Positions 22,294 through 49,373 of a DNA stretch of 64,000 nt are shown in pieces. Each line of letters begins with the position of its first letter. Position 1 is the first letter of the stretch. The notes under the pieces were generated by a model. The model was not told the DNA's origin, ran no database searches, and saw only the letters and a program-made list of their open reading frames with translations. This DNA comes from Chitinophagales bacterium (GTDB taxonomy: Bacteria; Bacteroidota; Bacteroidia; Chitinophagales; BACL12): positions 20,735 to 84,734 of the forward strand of contig DAORKJ010000002.1 in the NCBI GenBank assembly GCA_035439505.1, in the 5' to 3' direction. The position numbers were made by a program, and so were the translations under genes.

Positions 22294-24741
22294 ATGAATA
22301 ACTTGTTTGCTGATGTGATTTTGCCGTTTGCGTTGGAAAAGAACTACACCTATGCAGTTCCGGATGAGTTTGGTGCGGCGCTTACTCCGGGTATGCGTGT
22401 AGAAGTGCCTTTCAGAAATAAAAGTTATACAGGTATTGTTGCTAAAATTCATACAAACATTCCCGCCGGTTATCAGCCAAAAGCGATATTAGCTTTGCCC
22501 GATCATTTGCATATTGTAAATAAGGTTCAATTAGAATTTTGGAAATGGATGGCAGGTTATTATATGTGTTCAACAGGTGATGTGATGAATGCTGCATTAC
22601 CTGCACCTTACAAACTCAGCAGCGAAACAATTATTGTGTTGAAGGCGGATGTAAATATAGATGCTGCTTTATTGGAAGATAAAGAATTTTTAATTGCAGA
22701 AGCATTAACTATTCAGAAAGAACTGAAGTTAAAAGATATTCAACTTATACTTCAACAAAAAACAATTCAACCCACCATAAAATCGCTGATAGAAAAGGGA
22801 ATTGTTTATGTAAAGGAAGAGTTGACAGAAGTATATACACCAAAAACTGAAAAGTTTATTGTATTAAATAAAAAGTACACCGATGAAGCGGCATTACAAC
22901 AACTGTTTGAACAATTGCAACGCCATGAAAAGCAGTTAAATATTTTAATGGTGTATTATCAGCATTCCCAAAATAATAATAAGATTAAAAAATCATTTTT
23001 ATTAAGAAAATCGGGAGCATCGGCAGCTGTGCTTAAAACGCTTATAAAAAATAATATTTTTGAAGAAATAGATGAACAGGTCAGCAGATTACAATTGTAT
23101 GGTGATGACCAGATGGATGATTTTGTTTTAAATGCAGAACAGGAAAGAGCAATTAATGAAACAAGGAATTTTTTAAAAGAAAAAAGTACTGTATTAATTC
23201 ATGGTGTTACCGGTAGTGGTAAAACGGAAGTGTATATTGAGCTCATAAAAGAATATATTCAATCTGGCAAACAAGTATTGTATTTGTTGCCGGAAATTGC
23301 ATTAACCACACAAATTATTTCACGACTTAAAAAACGTTTTGGCAATCAGATTGGTGTTTACCATTCTAAGTTTAATCAAAACGAAAGAATTGAAATTTGG
23401 CAGCGTGTTTTAAATAATGAATATAGAATTATTTTAGGGGCGCGGTCTTCGTTGTTTTTGCCTTTTAATGATTTGGGTTTGATAATTATTGATGAGGAGC
23501 ATGATTATTCGTATAAACAACACGAACCTGCACCGCGTTATCATGCCCGCGATGCAGCAATTTATCTGGCTTATTTACATAACGCCAAAACAGTATTGGG
23601 AACAGCAACACCATGTATTGAAACTTATTTTCAGGCAGTGCATGGGAAATTCGGATTGGTGAAAATGCTAAAACGATATGCCGATATGGCAATGCCGGAA
23701 ATCCGTATTGCTGATGTAAAGGAAGAAGAAAAAAATAAAACCATGCATTCGCATTTTACTTCTGCTTTGGTGGGAAGAATGAAATATGCATTGGATTTAA
23801 AAGAACAAATTATTTTGTTTCAAAATAGAAGGGGATATGCGCCATTTCTCATTTGTGAAGCTTGTGGGTGGACACCCAGATGTATTAATTGTGATGTAAA
23901 CCTAGTTTACCATAAGTTCAGTAATGAATTGAGATGTCATTATTGTAATTATACAAATAATACTTATACCGTATGCCCGGCATGTGGAAGCTCGCGAATT
24001 ATAATTAAAGGTTTTGGAACAGAAAAAATTGATGATGAATTGCAATATTTATTTCCTGAAGCAAAAACAGGCAGGTTAGATTTGGATACCGTAAAATCGA
24101 AACATGGGCATGAAAAAATATTACGTGCATTTGAGTCGGGCGATATTGATATTTTAACCGGTACACAAATGGTTACTAAGGGACTGGATTTTGACAATGT
24201 AAATCTGGTTGGCATTTTAAGTGCGGATCAGATTTTAAATTTTTCTGATTTCAGAGCAGCAGAAAGAGCATTCCAAATGATAACACAGGTAAGTGGGAGA
24301 GCCGGCCGGAAAAACAAAAAGGGCCTTGTAATGATTCAGGCCATTCAGGTAAATCATCCTGTATTACATTATGTCATGCAAAATGATTATGCCGGATTTT
24401 ACACCAAAGAAATTGCCGAGCGGCAGCAATTTGGTTATCCGCCATTTATGCGTTTAATTAGAATTACGTTGAGACATAATAAGGTTGAAACTGTAAACAA
24501 AACAGCATCCTGGCTGGGGTCAGAGCTCAAAAATCAATTGGGCGAACGTGTGTTGGGACCTGCAATTCCGGGAATTCCGCGTATTCGTAATAAATATTTG
24601 TCGGAAATCATGATTAAATTCCCAAACAACAGGGTAAGCGGCGAATATGTGAAACAAATTGTGAAATTAGAAGTGGAAAAGTTGCAGCTAAATCCATCCC
24701 ACAAACGGGTTGAAATTGTGATAGATGTTGACCCAATGTAG
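22294..24741 (+). CDS. priA: Primosomal protein N' (replication restart helicase PriA)
   Basis: It has Walker A (GVTGSGKTEVY), DEEHD and the Cys-rich zinc region (CEACGW...CINCD...CHYCN...CPACGS). Confidence 0.95.
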   Translation: MNNLFADVILPFALEKNYTYAVPDEFGAALTPGMRVEVPFRNKSYTGIVAKIHTNIPAGYQPKAILALPDHLHIVNKVQLEFWKWMAGYYMCSTGDVMNAALPAPYKLSSETIIVLKADVNIDAALLEDKEFLIAEALTIQKELKLKDIQLILQQKTIQPTIKSLIEKGIVYVKEELTEVYTPKTEKFIVLNKKYTDEAALQQLFEQLQRHEKQLNILMVYYQHSQNNNKIKKSFLLRKSGASAAVLKTLIKNNIFEEIDEQVSRLQLYGDDQMDDFVLNAEQERAINETRNFLKEKSTVLIHGVTGSGKTEVYIELIKEYIQSGKQVLYLLPEIALTTQIISRLKKRFGNQIGVYHSKFNQNERIEIWQRVLNNEYRIILGARSSLFLPFNDLGLIIIDEEHDYSYKQHEPAPRYHARDAAIYLAYLHNAKTVLGTATPCIETYFQAVHGKFGLVKMLKRYADMAMPEIRIADVKEEEKNKTMHSHFTSALVGRMKYALDLKEQIILFQNRRGYAPFLICEACGWTPRCINCDVNLVYHKFSNELRCHYCNYTNNTYTVCPACGSSRIIIKGFGTEKIDDELQYLFPEAKTGRLDLDTVKSKHGHEKILRAFESGDIDILTGTQMVTKGLDFDNVNLVGILSADQILNFSDFRAAERAFQMITQVSGRAGRKNKKGLVMIQAIQVNHPVLHYVMQNDYAGFYTKEIAERQQFGYPPFMRLIRITLRHNKVETVNKTASWLGSELKNQLGERVLGPAIPGIPRIRNKYLSEIMIKFPNNRVSGEYVKQIVKLEVEKLQLNPSHKRVEIVIDVDPM

Positions 24742-24761
24742 TATCTTTGCCGCATAAACCT

Positions 24762-25202
24762 ATGTTATCTAAAAAAGCCAAATACGGACTAAAAGCTATG
24801 TTTTACCTGGGTAAACAATATGGCAAAGGCCCGGTACTCATTTCTGATTTAGCAGAAGAGGAAAACATACCCAAAAAGTTTCTCGAACTGATTTTACTTG
24901 AGCTGAAAAAAAATGGTTTATTACACAGCAAAATGGGCAAAGGCGGTGGGTATAGCCTAAGTAAATCGCCTGATGAAATTACTGTAGGACAGGTAGTGCG
25001 AATATTAGATGGCCCCTTAGCTCCAATACCATGCGTTAGTAAAACCGCCTATATGAAATGTGCAGAATGTGATAACGAAAAAACCTGTGAGATTAGGAAA
25101 ATAATGATGCAGGTTCGCGACGCATCAGCAGCCATTTTAGACCATACCAGTTTATTGGAGGCACCTAAAGCCTTGTTTACCGTAAATCGAAAATCAAAAT
25201 AA
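24762..25202 (+). CDS. Rrf2 family transcriptional regulator
   Basis: The MLSKKAKYGLKAM N-terminus is typical of Rrf2 wHTH proteins. A C-terminal Cys cluster is present (C-x8-C-x2-C-x6-C). I prefer the ATG at 24762. Confidence 0.8.
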   Translation: MLSKKAKYGLKAMFYLGKQYGKGPVLISDLAEEENIPKKFLELILLELKKNGLLHSKMGKGGGYSLSKSPDEITVGQVVRILDGPLAPIPCVSKTAYMKCAECDNEKTCEIRKIMMQVRDASAAILDHTSLLEAPKALFTVNRKSK

Positions 25203-25227: not shown

Positions 25228-25256
25228 TATTAAAAAAATAAGCATGTATTAATATA

Positions 25257-25275
25257 TTCTACTAATTCGATAGAA
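25257..25275 (+). promoter_or_regulatory. Degenerate copy of the CTAT-N7-ATAG element
   Basis: TTCTACTAATTCGATAGAA matches the 33444 copy at 14 of 19 positions. It lies 36 nt upstream of the porin ATG. Confidence 0.3.
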
Positions 25276-25310
25276 TATATAGATATTTGTGCGCACAAAA
25301 AATATTATTT

Positions 25311-26354
25311 ATGAAATCAACAGTTTTACTTTTAGTAGTTATGTTAAGTTTGTCGGTTGGGATGTATGCTCAGTCGGCTACACAGGTGGAGACCTATAAT
25401 GTAAAAGTTTCGCAGAAAATTGAATTACGCGGATTAACTCATGTTCGTTATCAGTTGTTTGAAGATTCAACCAAGTTTGATGCATTTGATTTACGTCGTG
25501 CTCGTTTAGATTTTAGAGGCGATATTGCACCTAAAGTTGGATATCGCTTACATACTGAACTTGCAGGTACACCTAAAATTTTGGATGCCACTTTTGTTTA
25601 CAAACCATATGAATGGTTAAACGTAAACGTAGGGCAAAGTAAATATCCGGTTTGTTATGATAACTTATACTCACCTTGGAATTTATTAACGATAAGCCGA
25701 ACACAAATAGATAATAGTTTATCGTTTCGTGAAAGTGATTTGTATGGCAACCAAAACGGTCGTGATATCGGTTTATGGTTAAGTGGAAAATATAGTATTG
25801 GCAGTGAAGAAGCTAAGCGTCCATTATTAGACTATACCCTTGGTATATATAATGGTTCAGGAATAAACGTAGCAGACAATAATCAGGATAAAGATATTTC
25901 TGCAGCATTGGGTATATCACCAATCAAAGATTTATGGATTTTTGGTCGATTTTTAAACGGTATAGGCAGAACAACCGTACAACCAACAGTAGATGCAGAC
26001 AGAACTCGTTTTGGTGGAAATATTTCCTATAAATATAAAAGTTTTATTGTTGAAGGAGAATATTTAGCTGCTTCAGATGAAAGCGATAGCTTAGCATTGC
26101 TGGAACGCAGTGGTTATTATGTAACTTTAGGTTATACACCAATTAAAGATAAATTACAAATCATTGCCCGATTAGATAATTATGATCCTAATACCGCTAC
26201 TGAAGACAATATTACCAATAAATATATTCTGGCTGCCAGTTATTTCTTTACTAAAAATACACGTATTCAATTAGAATATAATTTAGTATTAGAAGAAGCT
26301 GAGACACAAAAAGAAAATAATTTATTTGCAATACAATTCCAGGCAGCGTTTTAA
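25311..26354 (+). CDS. Phosphate-selective porin O/P family outer-membrane protein
   Basis: It has a signal peptide, the FDLRRARLDFRGD segment, beta-barrel periodicity and a terminal FQAAF. It lies directly upstream of the pst genes. Confidence 0.7.
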   Translation: MKSTVLLLVVMLSLSVGMYAQSATQVETYNVKVSQKIELRGLTHVRYQLFEDSTKFDAFDLRRARLDFRGDIAPKVGYRLHTELAGTPKILDATFVYKPYEWLNVNVGQSKYPVCYDNLYSPWNLLTISRTQIDNSLSFRESDLYGNQNGRDIGLWLSGKYSIGSEEAKRPLLDYTLGIYNGSGINVADNNQDKDISAALGISPIKDLWIFGRFLNGIGRTTVQPTVDADRTRFGGNISYKYKSFIVEGEYLAASDESDSLALLERSGYYVTLGYTPIKDKLQIIARLDNYDPNTATEDNITNKYILAASYFFTKNTRIQLEYNLVLEEAETQKENNLFAIQFQAAF

Positions 26355-26366
26355 ATTGCCTGTTTT

Positions 26367-26400
26367 AAATGGTTATTCTATTGGAATAGCCATTTATTTT
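26367..26400 (+). terminator. Intrinsic terminator after the porin gene
   Basis: AAATGGTTATTC-tattg-GAATAGCCATTT forms a stem with one G-U pair and is followed by a T-rich tract. Confidence 0.55.
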
Positions 26401-26409
26401 TATTTATTA

Positions 26410-26428
26410 TACTATAAAATCTATAGAA
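26410..26428 (+). promoter_or_regulatory. CTAT-N7-ATAG element copy upstream of pstS-1a
   Basis: TACTATAAAATCTATAGAA ends 22 nt before the ATG. Confidence 0.45.
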
Positions 26429-26450
26429 CAAATAGAATAAAATAAAATTT

Positions 26451-27428
26451 ATGAAAAAACTTATCATGTTGCCCATTATGTTTGGGCTAATAATTTTACA
26501 CGGAAGTTTTACCAATCCCAATGAAAAACCAATAAAGGTTGAAACACCTGCCGAGTTGGAAGGTAAAATTTCTTTAAGTGGAGCATTTGCTTTATACCCT
26601 TTAGTGGTAAAGTGGGGCGAAGAATTTAAAAAGTTGCATCCTAAAGTGCAGTTTGATATTCAAGGTGGAGGAGCAGGAAAAGGTATGACTGATGTTTTAA
26701 GTAACACAGTGGAACTTGGAATGGTTAGTAGAGAAATTACTCCTGATGAAGCGAAAAAAGGTGCAATAGGTTATGCTGTTGCAAAAGATGCTGTAGTGGC
26801 AACCATTAATATCAATAATCCTTATTATGCAAAAATTTATGAAAAAGGAATTACCAAAAAACAGTTTTATGATATTTGGGTAAACCGTGGTGTAGTGAGT
26901 TGGGGCGATTTATTAAAAAATGGGGCAAAAGAGAAAATGACGGTTTATACCAGAAGTGATGCATGTGGTGCTGCTGATGCCTGGGCGAAATATTTAGGCA
27001 ATAAAAAACAGGATGATTTAGAAGGAGTAGGTGTATTTGGTGATCCTGGTATTGCTAAAGCTGTAACTGCCGATAAATTTGGTATAGGATATAATAATGT
27101 TGCTTACGCATATGACTTCAAAACTAAAAAACCAAATCCCGGTATTGGCATAGTGCCTATCGATGTTAATGAAAATGGTAAACTGGACCCGGAAGAAAAC
27201 TTTTACAGCACTTCTGATAAATTAAACATGGCTATATTGGCAGGCAAATATCCTTCGCCACCTGCGCGTCAATTGTATTTGGTTTCTAATGGAACCATAG
27301 ATGACAAAGTAACACTGGCATTTTTGAATTGGGTATTAACCGATGGACAAAAGTATGTAGCCGAATCAGGATTTGTTGAATTACCAACTGAGGTAATCAA
27401 GGAACAAATCGCTAAACTTCCTAAATAA
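26451..27428 (+). CDS. pstS: Phosphate ABC transporter substrate-binding protein (PstS family), copy 1a
   Basis: It has a signal peptide and the SGAFALYPL...IQGGGAGKGMTDV motifs, and it sits upstream of pstCAB. Confidence 0.85.
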   Translation: MKKLIMLPIMFGLIILHGSFTNPNEKPIKVETPAELEGKISLSGAFALYPLVVKWGEEFKKLHPKVQFDIQGGGAGKGMTDVLSNTVELGMVSREITPDEAKKGAIGYAVAKDAVVATININNPYYAKIYEKGITKKQFYDIWVNRGVVSWGDLLKNGAKEKMTVYTRSDACGAADAWAKYLGNKKQDDLEGVGVFGDPGIAKAVTADKFGIGYNNVAYAYDFKTKKPNPGIGIVPIDVNENGKLDPEENFYSTSDKLNMAILAGKYPSPPARQLYLVSNGTIDDKVTLAFLNWVLTDGQKYVAESGFVELPTEVIKEQIAKLPK

Positions 27429-27438
27429 TCATGACCTT

Positions 27439-27474
27439 CCGTGGAGCACCTCCTTGGGCTCCATGGATTTTTTT
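27439..27474 (+). terminator. Intrinsic terminator between the two pstS copies
   Basis: CCGTGGAGC...GCTCCATGG forms the stem and is followed by ATTTTTTT. Confidence 0.6.
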
Positions 27475-27482
27475 CCGTACTA

Positions 27483-27501
27483 ATCTATCAAAACTATAGG
27501 A
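27483..27501 (+). promoter_or_regulatory. CTAT-N7-ATAG element copy upstream of pstS-1b
   Basis: ATCTATCAAAACTATAGGA lies 18 nt upstream of a TAnnTTTG box. Confidence 0.45.
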
Positions 27502-27519
27502 TATATCGAATAAGTAGAA

Positions 27520-27527
27520 TATATTTG
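27520..27527 (+). promoter_or_regulatory. -7 promoter box for pstS-1b/pstCAB
   Basis: TATATTTG matches TAnnTTTG, and the ATG follows 15 nt later. Confidence 0.45.
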
Positions 27528-27542
27528 CACAAAAAATATAAT

Positions 27543-28535
27543 ATGAGATATTTCCAATTACTAGTGTTGGTTGCTACAACCACGATTTTAGCAACTTCTT
27601 GTTCAAATGACAAGTCAGATAAAAATACCTCCTCAACAGAGTTAGAGGGGAAAATTACCATGAGCGGTGCTTTTGCACTTTATCCAATGGCAGTACAATG
27701 GGGCGAAGAATTTAAAGCTTTACATCCCAAGGTGCAATTTGATATTCAGGGTGGTGGAGCCGGCAAAGGCATGACAGACGTGCTTTCAGGAAGCACAAAT
27801 TTAGGTATGGTTTCGCGAGATGTGAATGCTGAAGAAATCAGCAAAGGTGCGTTTGATATTAGTGTTTGCAAGGATGCTGTTTTACCTACAATTAATGCGG
27901 AAAATCCATACAAAGATTTAATCTATCAAAAAGGGATAACTAACCAGCAATTTATTGATATCTGGGTTACCGGTAAAATTGTAACATGGGGCGATTTGTT
28001 GGGCAATGGCTCTAAAGAAAAAATTGAAGTATATACCAGAAGCGATGCAGCAGGTGCAGCCGAATCATGGGCAAAATATTTAGGTGGTAAGAAGCAGGAA
28101 GATTTAATAGGTGTTGGTGTAATGGGTGATCCCGGTTTAGCTCAGGCTGTTGTTAAAAGCAAATTTGCAGTTGGATTTAATAATGTAAGTTTTGCTTATG
28201 ATAATGTTACAAAAATAAATAACCCCGGTATTGCTGTATTGCCAATTGACATCAATGGAAATGGAACATTAGAACCGGAAGAAAATTTTTATAATAATAT
28301 GGATGATGTGAACGCTGCTATATTATCAGGCAAATATCCTTCACCTCCTGCTCGTCCATTATTATTTGTATCAAAAGGTGCACCTACAGACCCGCTGGTA
28401 ATTGCATTTTTACAATATGTATTATCTGAAGGTCAAAAAGGACTTTCGGATGCAGGTTATGTTACATTACCACAGGATATTATTCAACAGCAATTAGCCA
28501 AATTACCTGCTGCTGAAGTAGCTGAAAAAAAATAA
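27543..28535 (+). CDS. pstS: Phosphate ABC transporter substrate-binding lipoprotein (PstS family), copy 1b
   Basis: It starts MRYFQLL and has the lipobox LATSC. It is roughly two-thirds identical by eye to copy 1a. The track ORF start at 27441 runs through the terminator and promoter. Confidence 0.85.
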   Translation: MRYFQLLVLVATTTILATSCSNDKSDKNTSSTELEGKITMSGAFALYPMAVQWGEEFKALHPKVQFDIQGGGAGKGMTDVLSGSTNLGMVSRDVNAEEISKGAFDISVCKDAVLPTINAENPYKDLIYQKGITNQQFIDIWVTGKIVTWGDLLGNGSKEKIEVYTRSDAAGAAESWAKYLGGKKQEDLIGVGVMGDPGLAQAVVKSKFAVGFNNVSFAYDNVTKINNPGIAVLPIDINGNGTLEPEENFYNNMDDVNAAILSGKYPSPPARPLLFVSKGAPTDPLVIAFLQYVLSEGQKGLSDAGYVTLPQDIIQQQLAKLPAAEVAEKK

Positions 28536-28570
28536 ATATTATACCATCTAAATAATCTAATAACGGACGT

Positions 28571-29605
28571 ATGAATAAATTTTTTAAAAGAAAATTGCTA
28601 TCTGCTATGCCGTTTAGGTTAAGTAAAACTGAAACGGAAATGTTAAATGATATGCAAATTAAAGATATCCTATCTGAGCCCGACACACACAAAAAAAATA
28701 ATACAGGTTCGAACCCGTATAGGGTTATTTTAGATGGGTTTATGGGGAAGGTGGTTAGGCTAATGACCATCTTCTCCCTTTTATTACTTGTATTTATAAT
28801 AATTGGCCTTGTTTATAAGTCATTGCCTGTATTAGGTGCAAATAGTTTAAAAGATTTATTATTTTCTTCACAATGGAGCCCATTTAAAGGGGAATTTGGT
28901 TTTTTACCATTCATTTTAAGTACTGTTTATGTCACCGTTATAGCGGCTGTCATTAGTATTCCGCTTAGTATATTAACAGCAATTTATTTGAGCGAGTATG
29001 CCAACAAAAGATTTCTAAAAGTTGCTGCACCAATGTTAGATATTCTGGCTGGAATTCCATCCGTTATTTATGGTATTTGGGGTGTTTTAATTATTGTACC
29101 TTTTATACGTAATGATGTTGCAGGTTGGTTTGGTGTTGAAGACTCAAGTGGATATTCTTTACTTGCAGGAGGAATTGTATTATCGGTAATGGTTTTTCCC
29201 GTTGTTGTTCAAATTGTATATGAAGTACTTAAAATTGTACCAGTTACATTGCGAGAAGCAACGCTTTCACTTGGTGCTACAAAATGGGAAACAATTAAAA
29301 AAGTAGTAATTAAAAAAGCCTCACCTGGTATATTGGCTGCTTGTATTTTAGGGTTTTCTCGTGCATTTGGTGAAACAATAGCTGTTTTAATGGTGGTTGG
29401 GAATGTTGTACAGGTACCGAAAGGAATTTTCGATGAGGGTTATCCAATTCCATCATTAATAGCAAACAATTACGGTGAAATGATGAGCATACCCATGTAT
29501 GATTCTGCGCTCATGTTTGCCGCATTAATTTTATTATTAATCATTCTGGTTTTTAATATTTATGCCCGTTGGGTGTTGAACAGAATGGAGAAAAAAATCG
29601 CATGA
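28571..29605 (+). CDS. pstC: Phosphate ABC transporter permease PstC
   Basis: It is a polytopic permease with an EAA-like loop (REATLSLGATKWETIKKV). Confidence 0.85.
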   Translation: MNKFFKRKLLSAMPFRLSKTETEMLNDMQIKDILSEPDTHKKNNTGSNPYRVILDGFMGKVVRLMTIFSLLLLVFIIIGLVYKSLPVLGANSLKDLLFSSQWSPFKGEFGFLPFILSTVYVTVIAAVISIPLSILTAIYLSEYANKRFLKVAAPMLDILAGIPSVIYGIWGVLIIVPFIRNDVAGWFGVEDSSGYSLLAGGIVLSVMVFPVVVQIVYEVLKIVPVTLREATLSLGATKWETIKKVVIKKASPGILAACILGFSRAFGETIAVLMVVGNVVQVPKGIFDEGYPIPSLIANNYGEMMSIPMYDSALMFAALILLLIILVFNIYARWVLNRMEKKIA

Positions 29606-30456
29606 TTATGAATAAGAGAAAACTGGAAGAGAAAATATTTAACATCATAATGCGCATAGCAGCTTTCATCATATTTGGAAGCCTCATTGCTATTTCAATT
29701 ACTATTCTTATTGAGGGTATTCCTTCCATGAATATGGATATGATTACTAAAACTCCGCAAGGTGGTTTCTACCTGGGTAAAGAAGGTGGGATTTTAAATG
29801 CAATTGCGGGATCGTTTTATCTTGCAATTGGTGCTACGCTATTTGCATTAATTATTTGTTTACCTACTGTAATTTATATCAACATTTATGCACCTAAGAA
29901 TTCCAAATTTGCCAATCTTACACGTTTATGTTTAGATGTATTATACGGCATTCCTAGTATTGTATTTGGTGCATTTGGATTTGTACTAATGTTGCTGATT
30001 GGTATGAAAGTAAGTTTGTTAGCAGGTATTATTACCGTTGGGTTATTAATAGTACCCATTATAGCCCGAACCATGGATGAAGTTATAAGACAAGTTCCGG
30101 GAGAGTTGCAGGAAGCCGCATTTAGTTTAGGCGCAACACGCTGGGAAACCGCAATAAAAGTTGTTTTAAAACAGGGATTACCCGGATTAGCAACTGCGGC
30201 ATTACTTGGATTTGGACGTGCAATTGGAGACGCCGCATCGGTAATGTTCACAACAGGGTTTACCGACAATATACCACATTCTATAAATGACCCTGCGGCA
30301 ACTTTACCATTAGCAATATTCTTTCAATTAAGTTCTCCAATTGCTGAAGTGAGAGAAAGAGCTTATGCTGCAGCATTAATATTAACTGTAATCATTTTCG
30401 CAATAAGTTTACTTAGCCGACTTTTAATTAAAAGATTTTCTAAAAATACCATCTGA
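29602..30456 (+). CDS. pstA: Phosphate ABC transporter permease PstA
   Basis: It has the EAAFSLGATRWETAIKV loop. Its ATG overlaps the pstC stop (ATGA). Confidence 0.85.
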   Translation: MIMNKRKLEEKIFNIIMRIAAFIIFGSLIAISITILIEGIPSMNMDMITKTPQGGFYLGKEGGILNAIAGSFYLAIGATLFALIICLPTVIYINIYAPKNSKFANLTRLCLDVLYGIPSIVFGAFGFVLMLLIGMKVSLLAGIITVGLLIVPIIARTMDEVIRQVPGELQEAAFSLGATRWETAIKVVLKQGLPGLATAALLGFGRAIGDAASVMFTTGFTDNIPHSINDPAATLPLAIFFQLSSPIAEVRERAYAAALILTVIIFAISLLSRLLIKRFSKNTI

Positions 30457-30469
30457 AATAAATTATTTT

Positions 30470-31237
30470 ATGACAACAACTGTAAAATCGCATATCAGTA
30501 TCCGCAATCTCAATATGATGTACGGATCTAACCATGCTTTAAAAAATATAAATATTGATATCCCTGATAAAAAATTAACCGCCATAATTGGCCCTAGTGG
30601 ATGCGGTAAAACTACCTTACTTAAAACATTTAATCGTTTGATAGAAGGAGTAGATGGCACCAAAATTACTGGTGAAGTATTGGTTGATGGAGAAAATATT
30701 TATGCCAAAACTGCTGATGTAACAAATATTCGTAAGAAAATGGGTTTGCTAAATCAACGACCTACACCATTGCCAATGAGTATTTTCGATAACATCGCAT
30801 TTGGTATGCGTATTCATGGTGAAAAAAATAAACGCTTGTTGCAAGATCGCGTACAACATTATTTACAAGTTGCGAGTTTGTGGGATGAAGTAAAGGACAG
30901 GTTACATACACCGGCAGCAAGATTGTCTATTGGCCAGCAACAACGTTTATGTTTAGCAAGAGGCCTTGCTGTTGAACCTGAAATTATCTTAGGAGATGAA
31001 CCTACAAGTGCTTTAGACCCAATTTCAACTAAACATATTGAAAATAAATTTTCAGAATTAAAAGAGCAATACACCATTGTAATGGTGACACATATTTTAC
31101 GCCAGGCAAGAAGAATTGCTGATTATGTGATTTTCATGTATTTAGGCGAAATAATAGAACATGGTCCGACAGAGCAGGTTTTAACCAACCCGCAACACCA
31201 ATTAACAAAGGACTATGTTGGCGGAACGATAAGCTGA
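30470..31237 (+). CDS. pstB: Phosphate ABC transporter ATP-binding protein PstB
   Basis: It has Walker A (GPSGCGKTT), the signature LSIGQQQRL and Walker B (ILGDEPTSALD). Confidence 0.95.
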   Translation: MTTTVKSHISIRNLNMMYGSNHALKNINIDIPDKKLTAIIGPSGCGKTTLLKTFNRLIEGVDGTKITGEVLVDGENIYAKTADVTNIRKKMGLLNQRPTPLPMSIFDNIAFGMRIHGEKNKRLLQDRVQHYLQVASLWDEVKDRLHTPAARLSIGQQQRLCLARGLAVEPEIILGDEPTSALDPISTKHIENKFSELKEQYTIVMVTHILRQARRIADYVIFMYLGEIIEHGPTEQVLTNPQHQLTKDYVGGTIS

Positions 31238-31268
31238 CAAGCAGTTTTTCATAAATCGGTTAGGTTGA

Positions 31269-31304
31269 GAACCCTGTGAGTTATGGCGCAGGGTTCGCTG
31301 TTTA
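31269..31304 (+). terminator. Candidate terminator after pstB
   Basis: GAACCCTG...CAGGGTTC forms the stem, but the downstream T tract is weak. Confidence 0.4.
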
Positions 31305-31332
31305 ATAAAAATGCCCGCCAATTGGCAGGCAT
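31303..31332 (-). terminator. Candidate terminator after the flavoprotein gene
   Basis: ATGCCCGCC-aatt-GGCAGGCAT forms a stem with one mismatch. On the minus strand a T5 tract follows. Confidence 0.5.
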
Positions 31333-31365
31333 TTGCACTTTACACATCCAACTATTCTATTTCAA

Positions 31366-32784
31366 TTAATCAATAATCCAATCAAAAAACGATTTTCTAC
31401 GTGTTTCCATAAACGATTGACTAATTTGTTTGGCGATATCATTTGCTTGTAACCGTATTTCTCTAATTGCTACACTTTCAAATTCTTTCCCCCTTCTAAG
31501 ATTACCAATTACAAAAATGTTTTTATCCGGTAATCCTGATTTATTAATAATATTGCCTTTGCTTGTGCAAGCAACACCTAAATCAAAATAATCAGTATCT
31601 GCCATCTCTCCTTCAAATAAATTTTGCCACAAACGATGTTTTGATTTTTTCAGGTTTGTCAATGGGCCGATACAGTTTATTAGATACTGAACATCGAATG
31701 ATATATTTTCCGAAGTCTTACGCAATTGAATAGCTGCAGCAATTCCATTTTGATTGGCAGCAAGCGACTTAATTTTACCTCCATAAATGGCAACTCCGCC
31801 CGACTGAATTTCATTTTGTAAATAGGCATAAGTTGATGCAGGTATTCGGTGTCGGTGAATTTCCCAATAGGGCTTCATATGCTCCATTAATCTGATGCGG
31901 TCGTTTAAACTCAGGCTGTTCCACCATTGCGGTAAATAAGGTCTGATAGCATCCATAACACTTTGCCAACCTATATTTTTGGCAGCAGCTAATTTCACCT
32001 CTGACTTTATATATTTTATTAAAGATGTTACGGAAATTTTTTCCGGGATTTTGTTTTGTAAATCCCAATGTTCACCCATTTTATGTGGTAATGGTATTAA
32101 CCCATGACGTGAAACAATATGTAATTTTCCCTTGTGACCATTTTTTCTTAAATTAATTAATACATCTACCATTGTTAAACCACAACCAACTATTAATATT
32201 GGAGCTTCATTCGGTATATTATTGAGTACTGCAGGTTGCCAGGGATTAGTAATAACATTGCCGTTTATATAAATGGAATTTGTTATTGGATATGGAAAAT
32301 GATTGTCCTGATTACCACTTGCTATTACAACCTTATCGCAACTAATTGTTTTGCCGGAATCAAGGGATATTGAGTATACATCTTTTTCCTGTTGAATATT
32401 AATTACCTCATCATGTACAATCGCAATTTCAGCATTACAATTTTGCAGTTGCGTATTAAGGTTTTCAGTTAAATAAGTTCCGAATAGCTGACGTGGTGCA
32501 AAATAATCAGGTGTAATATCAGATTGCTCAATACCTGCCTTTGGGCCATTGGCTTGTAACCAATTGTAAAAATGGTTGGGTTCATTAATATACAAACTCA
32601 TGCCAGAAGCCGGAACATTTAGTGGCTGCACCTGTAAGTCAGAAGCATATGCCAATCCTTTAAATAATTGAGATGGCGATTTTTCAATAATAACTATTTG
32701 AAAATTATCCATTTTTTGTTGGCATAAATAAAGTGCAGTTAATGACCCGCTCAGTCCGCCACCAATAATTACAATGCGCTTCAT
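31366..32784 (-). CDS. FAD/NAD(P)-binding flavoprotein (YdhS/COG4529-like)
   Basis: It has an N-terminal VIIGGGLSGS dinucleotide fold and a second Rossmann-like ILIVGCGLTMVD segment. It has no CxxC motif. Confidence 0.7.
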   Translation of the reverse strand: MKRIVIIGGGLSGSLTALYLCQQKMDNFQIVIIEKSPSQLFKGLAYASDLQVQPLNVPASGMSLYINEPNHFYNWLQANGPKAGIEQSDITPDYFAPRQLFGTYLTENLNTQLQNCNAEIAIVHDEVINIQQEKDVYSISLDSGKTISCDKVVIASGNQDNHFPYPITNSIYINGNVITNPWQPAVLNNIPNEAPILIVGCGLTMVDVLINLRKNGHKGKLHIVSRHGLIPLPHKMGEHWDLQNKIPEKISVTSLIKYIKSEVKLAAAKNIGWQSVMDAIRPYLPQWWNSLSLNDRIRLMEHMKPYWEIHRHRIPASTYAYLQNEIQSGGVAIYGGKIKSLAANQNGIAAAIQLRKTSENISFDVQYLINCIGPLTNLKKSKHRLWQNLFEGEMADTDYFDLGVACTSKGNIINKSGLPDKNIFVIGNLRRGKEFESVAIREIRLQANDIAKQISQSFMETRRKSFFDWIID

Positions 32785-32789
32785 ATCAT

Positions 32790-33425
32790 TTATTTATTCG
32801 GTTGTGGAGTAATACGCAAGTAAGGAGTAACACTGTGATATCCTTTTGGAAATTTGCTGGCAATTTCTTCATCTTGAATGGAAGGAATAATAATTACATC
32901 TTCACCATCTTTCCAGTTTGCAGGGGTTGACACACTGAAATTAGCTGTCAGTTGCAAGCTGTCTATGACTCTTAACAACTCATCGAAATTTCTTCCTGTA
33001 GACGCCGGGTAAGCTATGGTGAGTTTCACTTTTTTGTCAGGACTAATAACATACACAGTTCTGACGGTGGTGCTGTCACTGGCATTTGGATGAATCATGT
33101 CGTATAATAATGCAATTTTTTTCTCAGGGTCTGCGATAAGCGGATAATCGATGGTTGTTTGTTGCGTAGTTTCAATATCCGATATCCAGGCCATGTGCTT
33201 TTCAATAGGGTCAACACTGAGTGCTATAATTTTAACGTTCCTGGCACTGAAAGCTGCTTTGTACCTACCTGCCAAGCCTAGTTCTGTAGTACATACCGGT
33301 GTGAAATCGGCAGGATGACTGAACAAAACAACCCAGCTGCTTCCAGCCCAGTCATAAAAATGGATATTACCCATAGTTGTCTGGGCAATAAAGTCGGGAG
33401 CGGTGTCGCCTAATCGAATACTCAT
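32790..33425 (-). CDS. 1-Cys peroxiredoxin (Prx6 subfamily)
   Basis: MSIRLGDTAPDF and PVCTTE are present, and that is the only Cys in the protein. I prefer the ATG at 33425 to the TTG at 33443. Confidence 0.9.
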   Translation of the reverse strand: MSIRLGDTAPDFIAQTTMGNIHFYDWAGSSWVVLFSHPADFTPVCTTELGLAGRYKAAFSARNVKIIALSVDPIEKHMAWISDIETTQQTTIDYPLIADPEKKIALLYDMIHPNASDSTTVRTVYVISPDKKVKLTIAYPASTGRNFDELLRVIDSLQLTANFSVSTPANWKDGEDVIIIPSIQDEEIASKFPKGYHSVTPYLRITPQPNK

Positions 33426-33440
33426 AACATTTATTTTTTG

Positions 33441-33462
33441 CAAATCTATAAAATCTATAGAA
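33441..33462. promoter_or_regulatory. CTAT-N7-ATAG element overlapping the minus-strand -7 box of the prx operon
   Basis: The element is ATCTATAAAATCTATAGAA (33444-33462). CAAATCTA (33441-33448) reads TAGATTTG on the minus strand, 15 nt before the prx ATG. Confidence 0.45.
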
Positions 33463-33488
33463 TAAGCAGTATATTAAATTTGATAAAA

Positions 33489-33531
33489 ATCTATCAAATC
33501 TATAGTATATATAGAAAAAGTAGTATTTTTG
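33489..33531 (+). promoter_or_regulatory. CTAT-N7-ATAG element plus -7 box for the SLC13 transporter gene
   Basis: The element is ATCTATCAAATCTATAGTA (33489-33507). TATTTTTG follows at 33524-33531. Confidence 0.45.
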
Positions 33532-33553: not shown

Positions 33554-35317
33554 ATGGAAATTGCAATTGTACTAGCCCTGCTAGTATTGGCTATTATTGC
33601 CTTTTCTACCGAAAAAATATCGGTAGATATTGTCACGATGACCGCAGTATTGCTGCTGGTTTTGACAGGAATTCTCGACTACAAGGAAGCGTTCGCCCCT
33701 TTCGGCAGCGATTTTATCATCATGTTGGCATCCATTTTTATTGTCACTTCGGCAATTGATTCCTCTGGGGTGCTGGAACATTGGACTTCCAAACTCATGC
33801 ACCGTTCGGGAGGTAGTCAAATGAAACTGATAATGCCTATGATTACTATTACCAGTGCTTTTTCGGCTTTTATGAATAATACTACCGTAACGGCATTGAT
33901 GATTAATCCCGCTATGGCTATTGCTAAAAAATCGGGAATTAACTTTTCTAAAATATTACTGCCCCTCGCTTTTGCCTCAATTGTAGGTGGAACTTGTACT
34001 TTAATTGGTACTTCTACTAACGTGGCTGTGAATGCCTATTTGAGCAAAAATGGCTATGAAGCATTTGGTATGTGGGACTTTACTTTAATTGGTATTATTA
34101 TGGTAATTGTTACACTGGTGTACATGGCAACGGTTGGAGTAAGAATGTTACCGAACAGACACAATGGTGACCTCACTGCAGAATATGGCGTAAGAGAATA
34201 TTTGAGCGAAATTAAAATATTAGCCGGTTCAACTTTAATTGGTCAGGTAATTCACGACTCGGAAATAAGCCGCATGGGTTTTAATGTTCTGGCTGTAATA
34301 AGAGGAGACAGACAATTTGCACCCGGACCTAATATTTCTTTCCGCGAAGGGGATATTGTTTTAGTAAAAGGTGCAATGCAACAATTACTGCAAGTAAAAA
34401 ATACAAAAGGAATTGATATTGTTGCGGATACTTTAGATTTTTATCAACCAAATGATAAGGCGCTTAAATTAACCGAAGTGGTTGTGCCGGGACGTTCAGA
34501 TTTAGCCGGTTCAACAATTGCCGAAATCGATTTTAGAAGAAAATACGGTATGGTGATAGTGGCTATTAACCGTGAAGGAAAAAATATTACAGAGCAATTA
34601 AACAATATTGTTATTGAAGTTGGTGATATGTTGCTTGTACAAGGTACTGATGATGCTTTTAATAAATTAAAAAATCACCACGACCTGGTTGTATTATCTG
34701 CACATATTCCACCGGTTAAAAATTTGTGGAAAGGTTATTTCGCATTGGGCTTCTTCTGTTTGGCAATAATTATAAGCTCTATTAAATTTTTTAACGTGCA
34801 CGTTTCTGTGGCGTTTTTAGCAAGCGCAGTTTTAAGTATGTTGGTTGGTGCAGTTAAACCGGATGATGCCTATAAAAGTATAGAATGGAAATTATTGGTG
34901 CTTATTGCAGGTATGACAGCATTCGGAACCGCAATGGGTAATTCAGGCGCCGATAAATATTTAGCAGAATTAATAGTCAGCTGGTTTGGTGGTTTTGGGC
35001 CTACCGGTATCATGTTGGGTTTTATGGTATTAACAGTGTTACTTACTCAACCTATGAGCAACGCGGCTGCGGCATTAGTAGTATTGCCTGTAGCATTGGA
35101 AGCGGCAAATACCTTGCATGTTAATCCATTAAGTTATGCAATTGCTGTAATGCTTTCTGCATCAGTTTCTTTAATAACTCCATTTGAGCCATCATGTATT
35201 TTAGTATATGGGCCGGGTAAATATAAATTTATCGATTTTGTAAAAGTGGGAGGTATATTAACTGCCATATTGGTTGGTATTATATATTTTGCAGTGCCTA
35301 TCATGTGGCCGCTATAA
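33554..35317 (+). CDS. SLC13/DASS-type anion permease with two central TrkA-C (RCK_C) domains
   Basis: It is a polytopic protein with two soluble repeats resembling TrkA-C (…LSEIKILAGSTLIGQ…, …LTEVVVPGRSDLAGSTIAE…). Confidence 0.8.
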   Translation: MEIAIVLALLVLAIIAFSTEKISVDIVTMTAVLLLVLTGILDYKEAFAPFGSDFIIMLASIFIVTSAIDSSGVLEHWTSKLMHRSGGSQMKLIMPMITITSAFSAFMNNTTVTALMINPAMAIAKKSGINFSKILLPLAFASIVGGTCTLIGTSTNVAVNAYLSKNGYEAFGMWDFTLIGIIMVIVTLVYMATVGVRMLPNRHNGDLTAEYGVREYLSEIKILAGSTLIGQVIHDSEISRMGFNVLAVIRGDRQFAPGPNISFREGDIVLVKGAMQQLLQVKNTKGIDIVADTLDFYQPNDKALKLTEVVVPGRSDLAGSTIAEIDFRRKYGMVIVAINREGKNITEQLNNIVIEVGDMLLVQGTDDAFNKLKNHHDLVVLSAHIPPVKNLWKGYFALGFFCLAIIISSIKFFNVHVSVAFLASAVLSMLVGAVKPDDAYKSIEWKLLVLIAGMTAFGTAMGNSGADKYLAELIVSWFGGFGPTGIMLGFMVLTVLLTQPMSNAAAALVVLPVALEAANTLHVNPLSYAIAVMLSASVSLITPFEPSCILVYGPGKYKFIDFVKVGGILTAILVGIIYFAVPIMWPL

Positions 35318-43909: not shown

Positions 43910-44929
43910 TTATACAAAAAATGAAACGATATAATAAATTAATCCGCTCATAATCATTGCTGCAGGAATAGTTAAAATCCAAGCCCACATAATTTTAGTT
44001 ACTACCGACCAACGAACAGCACTAACACGTTTAGCTGCCCCAACTCCCATAATTGAACCGGTAATAGTATGTGTAGTAGATGCTGGAATTCCCATTGCTG
44101 CAGTACCAAATAAAGTAATGGCACCGGCAGTTTCTGCACAAAAACCACCCATAGGTTTTAATGGCGTTAAATTGTGTCCCATTGTTTTTACAACTTTCCA
44201 TCCTCCTATTAAAGTACCCAATCCGATTACTGTATAACAGGCATAAAATACCCATTGCGGTGGGGCATCGATACTAGCATGCCCTGCAGATGCGAGAAGT
44301 AAAATAATAATTCCCGCTGTTTTTTGAGCATCGTTACTACCATGACCTAAACTAAATGCAGCTGAAGAAACTAATTGCATTACCTGAAAAAATCCATCTA
44401 CTTTTCCGGGACGTGTTCTTCTGAAAATCCAAAGTGTAATAATTTGTAAGGTATAAGCGGTAAATAAACCGATAATTGGCGCTAATAAAATGAATATCCC
44501 AATCCAGCCAATACCTTTATGATCTGGTTCAAACCACAACAATGCATCAGGTCCGGCTTTTACTAATGCGGGTCCAATTAATCCTCCAATTAAGGTGTGT
44601 GAAATACTAATTGGCAAACCAAATCGGGTGCAAATCCATCCCCAAATAATTGCACCAACAAGTGAGCAAAAAATAAAATAATTATCACCATCAACTACGG
44701 AGGCATCAATTACTCCTTTACTCATTGTTTTGGAAACTTCAGTACTTTGAAAAATCCATAATGCAGCAAAATTGAAAAATGCGGCCCATACTACAGCTTT
44801 AGCCGGACTTAACACCCTAGTTGCTACAATAGTGGAAATAGAGTTGGCAGCATCATTGGCTCCATTTATGAAGTCGAAAATGAGTGCAAGCACAACGGTT
44901 ATTATAATAATAGGTGCAATACCATCCAT
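43910..44929 (-). CDS. Inorganic phosphate transporter, PiT family
   Basis: Duplicated GANDAANS and GSNDAQKT signatures are present in a polytopic protein. Confidence 0.9.
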   Translation of the reverse strand: MDGIAPIIIITVVLALIFDFINGANDAANSISTIVATRVLSPAKAVVWAAFFNFAALWIFQSTEVSKTMSKGVIDASVVDGDNYFIFCSLVGAIIWGWICTRFGLPISISHTLIGGLIGPALVKAGPDALLWFEPDHKGIGWIGIFILLAPIIGLFTAYTLQIITLWIFRRTRPGKVDGFFQVMQLVSSAAFSLGHGSNDAQKTAGIIILLLASAGHASIDAPPQWVFYACYTVIGLGTLIGGWKVVKTMGHNLTPLKPMGGFCAETAGAITLFGTAAMGIPASTTHTITGSIMGVGAAKRVSAVRWSVVTKIMWAWILTIPAAMIMSGLIYYIVSFFV

Positions 44930-44931
44930 AA

Positions 44932-45579: not shown

Positions 45580-45590
45580 ACGTTCGTTGT

Positions 45591-45794
45591 TTAAGTTAAT
45601 GTTAACAGGAGCTAAATTAATTGTTAAATAAAAGATTTTTTAACACAAAAGTCATTCTTCATATAAATATTACGTTGAATTAACATTGGCTTAATATTGC
45701 GGAAACCATTGCTGCGCCTCAATAGTGCCTGTTTCTAAATTAACAAATCTTTATGTGAGTATAAAATAAACAATGGCTTAATAATTACTTAACA
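45591..45794 (+). promoter_or_regulatory. Pho-box-like direct repeats in the PiT/Pst-2 divergent region
   Basis: TTAACA occurs five times in one orientation (45602, 45640, 45680, 45740, 45789). Three 11-bp-phased pairs are present: TTAAGT-N5-TTAACA, TTAACA-N5-TTAATA and TTAATA-N5-TTAACA. Confidence 0.35.
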
Positions 45795-45830
45795 TAGCCA
45801 AAATACCTTCGCAGTAACAATTTTAAAGCT

Positions 45831-46790: not shown

Positions 46791-46845
46791 TTAATTATAT
46801 ACCTGTTCAGGCAGTGAAATAACTGCCTGAACAATTTTTTGTATT

Positions 46846-47724: not shown

Positions 47725-47738
47725 ATAAGCGCACAAGC

Positions 47739-48584: not shown

Positions 48585-48588
48585 TTAT

Positions 48589-49344: not shown

Positions 49345-49373
49345 TTTTAAATTCATTCAAATTTTTTAAAAAG

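Follow-up and report, generated by a model that had tools for sequence, protein, structure and literature searches.

The palindromic element that recurs in front of the porin, Pst-1, peroxiredoxin and permease genes is probably the operator of the adjacent four-cysteine Rrf2-family regulator, and the genes behind it would make up a sulfur-acquisition or sulfur-starvation regulon rather than a phosphate one.

The element and its promoters

Each of the five copies listed in the initial annotation was recovered, sequence and coordinates alike, in the window, i.e., the whole 64-kb stretch of DNA that was analysed. Their identities to the copy at 33444 were also reproduced, with 17, 16 and 17 of 19 positions matching in the three strong copies and, by direct reading, 14 of 19 in the copy before the porin gene. 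CTAT-N7-ATAG occurs seven times in the window against 0.98 expected, a count reached in 0 of 100 shuffles, and the 19-mer with at most three mismatches gives six full-length matches against 0.06 expected. The inverted repeat had been described in this CTAT-N7-ATAG form; its core is symmetric as claimed, but the description was too short, the conserved core being the 17-bp palindrome TCTAy-N7-rTAGA. At 26420 and 33499, and more weakly at other sites, an additional copy follows in register at a downstream offset of 9 bp. Matches of at least 14 bits to a 23-bp position weight matrix (PWM) are confined to four intergenic regions of a window that is 94% coding, a scan that is partly circular because the PWM itself includes these sites. 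The porin copy, initially taken for a weaker one, is in fact the closest to the cross-species consensus and has the top PWM score in the window (Table 1). Count enrichment and the tracking of the Rrf2 gene across species, described below, support the earlier claim of a genuine, dyad-symmetric cis-element common to several promoters. Alternatively, the copies might be left over from duplication of promoter modules, or be similar by chance in AT-rich DNA, with no dedicated binding protein; pstS-1a and pstS-1b are tandem paralogs with 60% identity, and the flanks of the sites are also alike. Such an origin is extremely improbable, being contradicted by a palindrome kept before non-homologous genes in about 50 species and by matches 100-fold above the shuffled expectation.

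TAnnTTTG boxes were used for promoter geometry in place of a sigma-70 scan, which returned 10 matches against 11.9 expected, the expected outcome for Bacteroidota promoters. As first described, 18 nt separate the 19-mer from the box at pstS-1b, and 16 nt at the permease gene. For pstS-1b, the -7 box TATATTTG (27520-27527) lies 28 bp downstream of the operator centre; for the permease, the -7 box TATTTTTG (33524-33531) lies 26 bp downstream of the centre of the primary core of operator 'b' and 17 bp downstream of that of the overlapping core. The operator overlaps the -33 region of both promoters. The reported overlap of the 33444 copy, within operator 'a', with the minus-strand prx -7 box TAGATTTG (33441-33448) holds as well. 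Positions over -7 or -33 promoter elements suggest repression but, taken alone, do not prove it; activation is also known from Rrf2 proteins, IscR among them.

The scan of the window found no copy upstream of the second pst operon, in agreement with the initial annotation. One alternative is that the element belongs to the Pho regulon as an operator, where PhoB or some other phosphate-responsive factor would bind it and couple Pst-1, prx and the permease under phosphate limitation; a Porin_O_P gene and a Pst-family ABC transporter do stand behind it, in a window rich in phosphate genes. A Pho box, however, was defined by at least two 7-bp direct repeats that recur every 11 bp in place of the -35 region, whereas the element is a palindrome with copies offset by 9 bp. 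The canonical pstSCAB-phoU and PhoU_div-Pit promoters do not have it and carry instead TTAAYA-N5-TTAAYA direct repeats, found nowhere else in the window, and in other lineages the same element stands before cysHDN, sbp, cobA and TauE. A Pho operator is thus highly improbable, and PhoB, which had been raised as a binder, is very unlikely, given a palindromic site and a pst-phoU cluster that bears different, Pho-box-like 11-bp repeats.

Table 1. Operators, genes and terminators of the proposed regulon (coordinates within the window)
Feature	Coordinates	Strand	Details
Rrf2-family transcription factor, proposed binder	24762..25202	+	146 aa; TIGR00738
Operator before porin gene	25255..25277	none	Core TCTACTAATTCGATAGA at 25258-25274; 26.4 bits
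Porin_O_P family anion porin	25311..26354	+	Pfam PF07396
Intrinsic terminator after porin gene	26366..26396	+	-14.9 kcal/mol, z -4.3, then T-run
Operator before pstS-1a	26408..26439	none	Two overlapping copies 9 bp apart; cores 26411-26427 and 26420-26436; 23.1 and 17.9 bits (PWM)
PstS-like binding protein 1a, variant ligand-loop subfamily	26451..27428	+	TIGR02136, 101.6 bits
Intrinsic terminator after pstS-1a	27438..27467	+	-21.3 kcal/mol, z -4.6, then T7 run
Operator before pstS-1b	27481..27503	none	Core 27484-27500; 22.8 bits
pstS-1b-pstCAB unit	27543..31237	+	pstS-1b 27543-28535, pstC 28571-29605, pstA 29569/29602-30456, pstB 30470-31237
FAD-NAD(P)-binding protein (NAD_binding_9), second gene of prx unit	31366..32784	-	PF13454
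1-Cys peroxiredoxin	32790..33425	-	AhpC-TSA + 1-cysPrx_C
Operator 'a' (prx side)	33442..33464	none	Core 33445-33461; 24.0 bits
Operator 'b' (permease side)	33487..33518	none	Cores 33490-33506 and 33499-33515; 23.2 and 14.9 bits
CitMHS / IT-superfamily anion permease, two TrkA_C domains	33554..35317	+	Pfam

Co-occurrence of the element with the Rrf2 gene

Orthologs of the Rrf2 gene could be found in about 80 species of several phyla. In relatives the gene keeps the permease and porin genes as neighbours, at 83, 75 and 69% identity, also in the absence of the Pst and prx genes, and the element precedes both of these neighbours there. In L007-L009, as in many Chitinophagales loci, the operator beside Rrf2 is followed by a permease ortholog, porin orthologs adjoin Rrf2 and the permease in relatives, and homologs of the FAD-NAD(P)-binding protein, which has no PDB relative by sequence, stand directly behind the operator in L059, L100 and L118. 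When intergenic and coding hit rates of the PWM were compared, as the initial annotation had proposed, 83 related loci gave 75 intergenic and 2 coding matches, with intergenic DNA making up only 11%. In species and loci outside the PWM set, the intergenic DNA flanking Rrf2 contained 47 matches in 23.2 kb versus 0.46 after shuffling, and almost all of the 21 matches elsewhere in such loci lay before further genes of the same clusters. An orthologous site follows Rrf2 in 18 of 20 Chitinophagales loci, and in five non-Bacteroidota loci the site lies upstream of the Rrf2 gene itself, a pattern of autoregulation. The association extends beyond Bacteroidota to loci labelled Acidobacteriota, Nitrospirota, Deinococcota and Alphaproteobacteria.

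The adjacent Rrf2 protein, one of the binders first suggested, is therefore the best candidate, as the element tracks its gene across about 80 species; from this co-localisation, binding by Rrf2 is most likely. A regulator encoded elsewhere, e.g., a LysR-type, CysB-like protein with a T-N11-A motif, might bind the palindrome with Rrf2 as a mere neighbour: the core does contain a T-N11-A pattern, and Rrf2 is only a candidate binder. Nevertheless, the element follows Rrf2 across phyla and also occurs upstream of Rrf2 itself, and among the loci examined with called genes none lists a LysR gene, which leaves this alternative quite improbable. The initial statement that no Bacteroidota operator of this form had been described agrees with the literature searched, in which none was found; the literature searched on Rrf2, with results partly dominated by plant and taxonomy papers, yielded nothing on a Bacteroidota sulfur regulator.

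The regulator

The protein scored 112.1 bits against the Rrf2 superfamily model TIGR00738 (cutoff 73.3), and PF02082 is recorded for all of its homologs. It fell below the cutoffs of the CymR model NF047409 (83.6 bits, cutoff 195) and the IscR model TIGR02010 (63.7 bits, cutoff 207.6), and likewise of the RirA and NsrR models, and its closest PDB entries are 4CIC and then B. subtilis CymR 2Y75 (75 bits). Four cysteines, C91, C100, C103 and C109 (C-x8-C-x2-C-x5-C), are invariant in 82 of 82 orthologs, in place of the IscR ligand pattern C92/C98/C104/H107, and conservation reaches 90% or more over the recognition-helix region IPKKFLExILL. The protein thus has the three or more conserved cysteines after the winged helix-turn-helix domain that mark the general Fe-S-binding class of Rrf2 proteins, the cluster itself being only putative. 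The regulator is assigned to an experimentally uncharacterised, widely conserved Rrf2 subfamily with these four cysteines, closest to CymR but distinct from it.

Genes behind the operator

The initial annotation had proposed a regulon centred on phosphate uptake. The shared regulon stands, with the porin, pstS-1a, pstS-1b-pstCAB, prx-flavoprotein and TrkA_C permease units tied by the element; its phosphate-centred framing is unsupported, because in other lineages the orthologous Rrf2 gene and the same operator adjoin sulfur genes. The genes behind the operator differ by lineage: cysH-cysD-cysN, as in the Rrf2-operator-cysH-cysD-cysN order of Flavobacteriaceae; sbp and ABC transporter genes; cobA and homoserine sulfhydrylase; TonB receptor, DUF2490 and TauE; and, in Chitinophagales, Porin_O_P, CitMHS/TrkA_C permease and the Pst-type ABC system. 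Operator-linked genes scored 426 bits for CysD, 442 for CysN, 258 for PAPS/APS reductase, 552 for the sulfate-binding protein and 244 for CobA/CysG, with a homoserine sulfhydrylase-like enzyme and TauE/SafE also behind the operator. A metagenome scan with the operator alone found a regulon-type neighbour in 11 of 48 loci with intergenic matches versus 0 of 32 with coding matches (p = 0.002), and according to Pfam the metagenome copies adjoin a sulfatase, two sulfotransferases and two SsuA/NMT1-like binding proteins, which argues further against the phosphate framing. The analysis covered the 64-kb window and 20-kb loci, and for this genome the sulfur link is suggested by orthology. Cys plus Met content did not differ significantly between the nine operator-controlled proteins and the 47 others of the window (2.98% vs 3.49%, p = 0.18).

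The regulator might instead be a redox or oxidative-stress sensor like RsrR, SaiR and HypR, with an antioxidant regulon in which the transporters are secondary. Redox sensing is known for several Rrf2 proteins (PMC9218516), all four cysteines of this regulator are invariant, and the regulon includes a flavoprotein and a peroxiredoxin of the 1-Cys type, with both domains, a single cysteine in the motif PVCTTE and no resolving cysteine. The peroxiredoxin is lineage-specific, however, whereas the neighbours shared across phyla are genes for sulfate activation, reduction and uptake, so that a redox role appears unlikely. The peroxiredoxin would also fit a sulfur regulon, because sulfur-starvation responses are documented to include antioxidant genes; LsfA, the 1-Cys peroxiredoxin of P. 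aeruginosa, is induced more than 45-fold under sulfur starvation (PMC12581299; PMC4199769). As for the permease, the initial SLC13-type assignment could not be sustained: Pfam gives CitMHS with two TrkA_C domains and no Na_sulph_symp domain, the PROSITE PS01271 Na+:sulfate signature was not found, though this is weak evidence, and the protein is not a demonstrated SLC13 sulfate symporter. In algae, SLC13-like permeases that carry TrkA-C domains serve as Na+/sulfate transporters (PMC8780407).

The Pst-1 transporter

By homology, Pst-1 is a Pst-family transporter: PstC, PstA and PstB exceed the NCBIfam equivalog cutoffs (281.4/196.5, 207.7/193.5 and 355.9/343.2 bits, respectively), while PstS-1a and PstS-1b stay below that of TIGR02136 (101.6 and 114.7 bits, cutoff 206.6). 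The hydroxyl phosphate ligands of E. coli PstS (S38, S139 and T141) correspond to A, C and A in PstS-1a and to A, A and A in PstS-1b, and both proteins have variant loops; PstS-2 and C. perfringens PstS 4GD5 keep S/T there. The initial assignment of Pst-1 to high-affinity phosphate uptake is doubtful, since these three conserved ligands are missing from its binding proteins. The change is kept in the 120 best homologs. The conclusion that variant PstS is not a phosphate binder cannot be extended to the whole subfamily, because the loci L090 (Bacteroidales) and L091 and the P0210 contig carry variant pstSCAB without Rrf2; a constant linkage of variant PstS to Rrf2 was accordingly rejected, and L090 and L091 have no operator. 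The membrane subunits of Pst-1 are richer in Met than their Pst-2 paralogs.

It is conceivable, though rather less likely than its converse, that Pst-1 is a Pst-family ABC system recruited for a sulfur oxyanion (sulfate, thiosulfate) or another non-phosphate anion and that, jointly, the four-cysteine Rrf2 senses sulfur supply directly. In its binding proteins Ala, Gly and Phe have replaced the hydroxyl phosphate ligands, Pst-1 would take the place held by sbp and ABC genes beside Rrf2 in other phyla, and sensing would depend on whether an Fe-S or metal centre is assembled or lost. If so, Bacteroidota, which have no CysB, would have their long-missing sulfur regulator in this Rrf2, and a PstS variant binding a sulfur oxyanion would add a specificity new to the Pst family.

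Proposed regulation and significance

The sites, their enrichment, the co-occurrence with Rrf2 and the sulfur genes together argue that the element is the operator of this Rrf2 subfamily. We infer that an Rrf2 dimer may bind the 17-bp palindrome, which lies over the core of the five promoters (porin, pstS-1a, pstS-1b-pstCAB, prx-flavoprotein and TrkA_C permease). When sulfur is sufficient, Rrf2 would repress them, and when sulfur is scarce, it would most likely release them; the signal would be sulfur status, which the four cysteines possibly read through an Fe-S or metal centre.

The literature searched contains essentially no description of sulfur sensing and the response to sulfur supply in Bacteroidota. 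Offered here are a candidate four-cysteine regulator, an operator consensus and a first regulon reconstruction reaching several other phyla. The annotation of a 'phosphate porin + PstSCAB' cluster in activated-sludge Chitinophagales would be corrected from phosphate-type to sulfur-type control, which bears on how nutrient-limitation signals are read in metagenomes and metatranscriptomes.

Comparison with known systems

CymR is the nearest relative among known systems: it belongs to the Rrf2 family, its model is the best-scoring NCBIfam equivalog for the protein studied here, and it controls sulfur and cysteine acquisition genes as a repressor, a role that the operator positions suggest here as well. 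However, the four invariant cysteines are absent from that region of the aligned CymR structure sequence, and the phyletic range here comprises Bacteroidota and several Gram-negative phyla. CymR needs CysK for DNA binding, and its operator is different and longer. With IscR, NsrR, RirA and RsrR the regulator shares the winged-helix Rrf2 fold, a Cys-rich segment after the DNA-binding domain and promoter-overlapping palindromic operators, but its probable targets lie in sulfur assimilation, not in Fe-S biogenesis, NO or iron. Its C-x8-C-x2-C-x5-C spacing is also unlike the cluster ligands of NsrR (D8, C93, C98, C105) and RsrR (E8, H12, C90, C110) (PMC9218516). An annotation label linking Rrf2 to cysDN expresses the same idea as the Flavobacteriaceae arrangement, but it is a label only, which in the literature searched occurs in a single paper on a Rhodococcus protein, with no operator, regulon or mechanism described. 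The CysB/Cbl sulfate-starvation regulon of Proteobacteria has comparable content, with its sulfate-binding protein and ABC transporter, organosulfur uptake and starvation-induced 1-Cys peroxiredoxin (LsfA); nevertheless, CysB is a LysR-type activator, whereas the regulator here is a non-homologous Rrf2 protein and probably a repressor.

Operator copies and transcription units in the window

The five intergenic copies of the element reported in the initial annotation were all found at their positions, and enrichment over chance confirms a real repeated element. The CTAT-N7-ATAG core occurs 7 times in the 64 kb against 0.98 expected, a count reached in 0 of 100 shuffles, and with at most 3 mismatches allowed, the 19-mer gives 6 matches against 0.06 expected. 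Core and 19-mer searches also returned extra copies 9 bp downstream of reported ones (26421 and 33498/33500), plus one on the reverse strand at 25266, and the element regions, set in a 9-bp register, comprise three or four units. The element is best described as a palindrome of 17 bp, TCTAy-N7-rTAGA, behind which a second, overlapping copy often lies. A symmetrised 23-bp PWM was built from ten sites including those of the window, which makes the window scan partly circular; all its matches of at least 14 bits fell within the four intergenic regions already flagged, although the window is 94% coding, and the porin copy, earlier called weak, has the top score (26.4 bits). At 26408-26439 and 33487-33518, the second copy overlaps the first at a 9-bp offset with the central TCTATAGA common to both, and such overlapping copies recur elsewhere in Chitinophagales (loci L010 11642/11651, L013 11690/11699, and L014 3844/3853); with this spacing, two dimers would sit on almost the same face of the helix.

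A strong hairpin with a T-run behind it lies 3′ of the porin gene and another 3′ of pstS-1a, indicating that porin, pstS-1a, and pstS-1b-pstCAB are separate transcription units, and each of the three has its own operator. The upstream neighbour of the cluster is priA. The Rrf2 gene starts 20 bp past it (24741-24762) with no operator upstream, as in most Chitinophagales loci.

Features of the window and of related loci (L numbers, related genomes or metagenome contigs)
Feature	Location	Strand	Basis or remark
Rrf2 regulator	24762-25202	+	TIGR00738, 112 bits; best equivalog CymR, 83.6, far below cutoff 195
Porin_O_P porin	25311-26354		Pfam PF07396
Two PstS-like proteins (PstS-1a, PstS-1b)	26451-27428, 27543-28535		PstS cutoffs not reached
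PstC, PstA, PstB	28571-31237		Scores above cutoffs
FAD-NAD(P)-binding protein and 1-Cys peroxiredoxin	31366-33425	-	Pfam
CitMHS permease with two TrkA_C domains	33554-35317		Pfam
PhoU_div-Pit, divergent from pstSCAB-phoU	43910-50036		Second phosphate cluster
Direct repeats TTAACATTGGCTTAATA and TTAATAATTACTTAACA	45680-45696 and 45778-45794		PhoU_div-Pit/pstS-2 intergenic region
FAD-NAD(P)-binding protein, window copy	31366-32784	-	
FAD-NAD(P)-binding protein, other copies	L059 10579-11940; L100 7150-8733; L118 927-1748		
4-Cys Rrf2 between pstB and Na_H_Exchanger gene	L092 11903-14022; L213 10639-12646; L214 10746-12711		

Conservation of the element with the Rrf2 regulator

The source, an uncultured Chitinophagales bacterium, recurs in many metagenome assemblies, activated sludge among them. 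Next to Rrf2 orthologs at 83, 75, and 69% identity, the permease and/or porin genes are still found, Pst genes are present or absent, and there is no peroxiredoxin; the element precedes the permease/porin genes in each of these loci. A protein-guided scan with one genome per species gave 80 Rrf2 loci. Among them are loci from Chitinophagales, Cytophagales, Flavobacteriales, and Sphingobacteriales, and the others bear the labels Acidobacteriota, Manganitrophaceae, Trueperaceae, “delta proteobacterium”, and Alphaproteobacteria (Methylocystis among these). At a PWM threshold of at least 13 bits, the suggested comparison of intergenic with coding DNA over loci L007-L089 yielded 75 matches in 162 kb against 2 in 1,279 kb. 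Among loci outside the PWM set, Rrf2-flanking intergenic DNA held 47 matches in 23.2 kb (46 of 113 regions) versus 0.46 in shuffled DNA, and the remaining intergenic DNA held 21 in 129.7 kb, nearly all preceding additional genes of the same clusters. This concentration beside the Rrf2 gene supports both the shared regulon and the candidacy of Rrf2 as its binder. The consensus is tAttCTActAAattGATAGAtTA in Chitinophagales (18 of 20 loci) and TAaTCTAcTaAtTCgATAGAcTA in Flavobacteriales (16 of 21), and Cytophagales sites have lower PWM scores with copies evident; the site-less loci mostly have Rrf2 neighbours outside sulfur-gene clusters. A site lies 5′ of the Rrf2 gene itself in five non-Bacteroidota loci; unlike these orthologs, the window gene probably shares a transcript with priA and lacks autoregulation.

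The nearest solved structures to the regulator are an IscR-like Rrf2 protein (4CIC) and Bacillus subtilis CymR (2Y75). Among 82 orthologs, C91, C100, C103, and C109 are invariant, and conservation reaches at least 90% in IPKKFLExILL, the probable recognition helix, in keeping with the conserved operator.

Sulfur genes behind the operator

Neighbouring ORFs were clustered and their representatives scored with curated models. Behind the operator lie a PAPS-reductase-like protein, CysD (426 bits), and CysN (442 bits) in Flavobacteriaceae; an APS/PAPS reductase (258 bits) in Flavobacterium; a CobA/CysG methyltransferase (244 bits) and an O-succinylhomoserine sulfhydrylase-like enzyme in Olivibacter/Pedobacter; a TonB-dependent receptor, DUF2490, and a TauE/SafE permease in Cytophaga; and, in Acidobacteriota, Hydrogenedentota, “delta”, and Methylocystis loci, a sulfate-binding protein (552 bits), with ABC permease and ATPase genes next in several. 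One Flavobacteriales MAG has a homolog of the FAD-NAD(P) protein, then a TonB receptor.

An unbiased search of metagenome contigs for exact copies of TCTACTAANNNGATAGA gave 82 matches in 80 loci, 50 of them intergenic. Neighbours of the intergenic matches included Sbp (three), CysH|CysD, TauE (three), the FAD-NAD(P) protein (two), TonB receptors, and Rrf2, and by Pfam also a sulfatase, two NMT1/SsuA-like binding proteins, a GST, and two sulfotransferases flanking one site. A regulon-type neighbour was present in 11 of 48 intergenic-match loci versus 0 of 32 coding-match loci (p = 0.002). On two metagenome contigs (L128 and L160), a PBP-like protein with 23–27% identity to the PstS cluster, the L160 copy being without a Pfam match, stands beside a TonB-dependent receptor, adjoining an operator 5′ of a TauE gene; the arrangement hints at a TonB-dependent uptake system for sulfur compounds. 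A short metagenome contig with only small ORFs, L116, has at its end three exact matches to the operator pattern, spread over roughly 100 bp (3785-3891).

In four unrelated genomes, the gene right behind the operator encodes the FAD-NAD(P)-binding protein (NAD_binding_9). Sequence comparison gives no solved homolog, and the protein is predicted to be an uncharacterised flavoenzyme of the sulfur regulon.

Given the sulfur genes behind the operator elsewhere, the phosphate framing of the initial annotation is not borne out, and the second phosphate cluster points the same way. Its pst operon had been described as free of the element, and the PhoU_div-Pit/pstS-2 intergenic region indeed holds no CTAT element. 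This region carries TTAAYA-N5-TTAAYA direct repeats with an 11-bp period and 7-bp units, the only 2 matches in the window (0.27 expected). Such a period is the architecture expected for PhoB-type boxes, and the repeats are candidate Pho boxes of the Chitinophagales lineage.

The variant Pst system

PstS-1a and PstS-1b score about half of the PstS cutoff. They were aligned with E. coli PstS, C. perfringens PstS 4GD5, and the window PstS-2. At the positions of the E. coli phosphate ligands S38, S139, and T141, they have A, C/A, and A, and their first loop reads AFA versus STS or SST in the compared proteins. The motifs SGAFALYP, GGAGKG, and TRSDAAGAA are kept in 11 of 11 copies linked to Rrf2 and in the 120 top-ranking database homologs. 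Judged by sequence, the variant PstS, with its hydroxyl phosphate ligands replaced, is a large Bacteroidota subfamily (the window pair and homologs P0121-P0240). NCBI names the homologs “substrate-binding domain-containing protein” or “PstS family”.

Three Chitinophagales-type loci (L092, L213, and L214) contain porin, variant pstS, and pstCAB, directly followed by a 4-Cys Rrf2 gene and a Na/H exchanger, and L092 and L214 have an additional 4-Cys Rrf2 gene just 5′ of the porin. Operators precede porin, pstS, and exchanger, the exchanger's own operator-like site scoring 11.8–16.2 bits, and the cation/proton antiporter may be a further regulon member. Three other sampled variant-Pst contexts have no neighbouring Rrf2 gene, and in the two of them with available DNA, L090 and L091, the operator is absent as well. 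These contexts with and without regulator and operator indicate that variant Pst in this regulon is a Chitinophagales feature.

The variant system could carry either a sulfur oxyanion or phosphate. It takes the Rrf2-adjacent place held in other phyla by sbp and ABC transporter genes, which favours the oxyanion, but its membrane and ATPase subunits are Pst equivalogs and a sulfur-economy test was negative.

Proposed mechanism and comparison with known regulators

The −7 box of prx (TAGATTTG, 20 bp 5′ of the start codon) is overlapped by the operator at 33445-33461. The pstS-1b operator is centred 28 bp upstream of its TAnnTTTG box. For the permease the distance is 26 bp, and 17 bp for the overlapping second copy, so that the −33 and spacer region is covered. 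Operators over the −7 box or the −33/spacer region fit promoter occlusion by a repressor, as in CymR and NsrR, and from these positions the Rrf2 regulator would be such a repressor. The regulon content suggests that the signal would be sulfur status; hypothetically, the four cysteines could bind a metal or Fe-S centre, and sulfur supply could be read through its occupancy.

The window permease lacks the Na+:sulfate signature. In green algae, Na+/sulfate transport is the function of SLC13-like permeases that carry TrkA-C domains, and bacterial homologs exist (PMC8780407); the window permease differs in being CitMHS by Pfam. The peroxiredoxin fits the sulfur reading, since the P. aeruginosa 1-Cys Prx gene lsfA is induced more than 45-fold on sulfur starvation, together with organosulfur uptake genes (PMC12581299, PMC4199769).

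Taken together, and as read from sequence and gene neighbourhood, the element is most likely the operator of a 4-Cys Rrf2 regulator that is uncharacterised, spans several phyla, and governs sulfur acquisition and assimilation. The finding would be weightier if the Pst-type system carries a sulfur anion or a metal or Fe-S centre lets the regulator sense sulfur. Several large clusters of the Rrf2 superfamily are still uncharacterised (PMC9218516), and an annotation label linking Rrf2 to cysDN has been applied to a Rhodococcus protein (PMC8557817). The cysteines of the window regulator differ in spacing from the NsrR and RsrR ligand sets given in PMC9218516, and CymR is without these four cysteines. 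Rrf2 sulfur regulation here would be a new form of the CymR-type theme.
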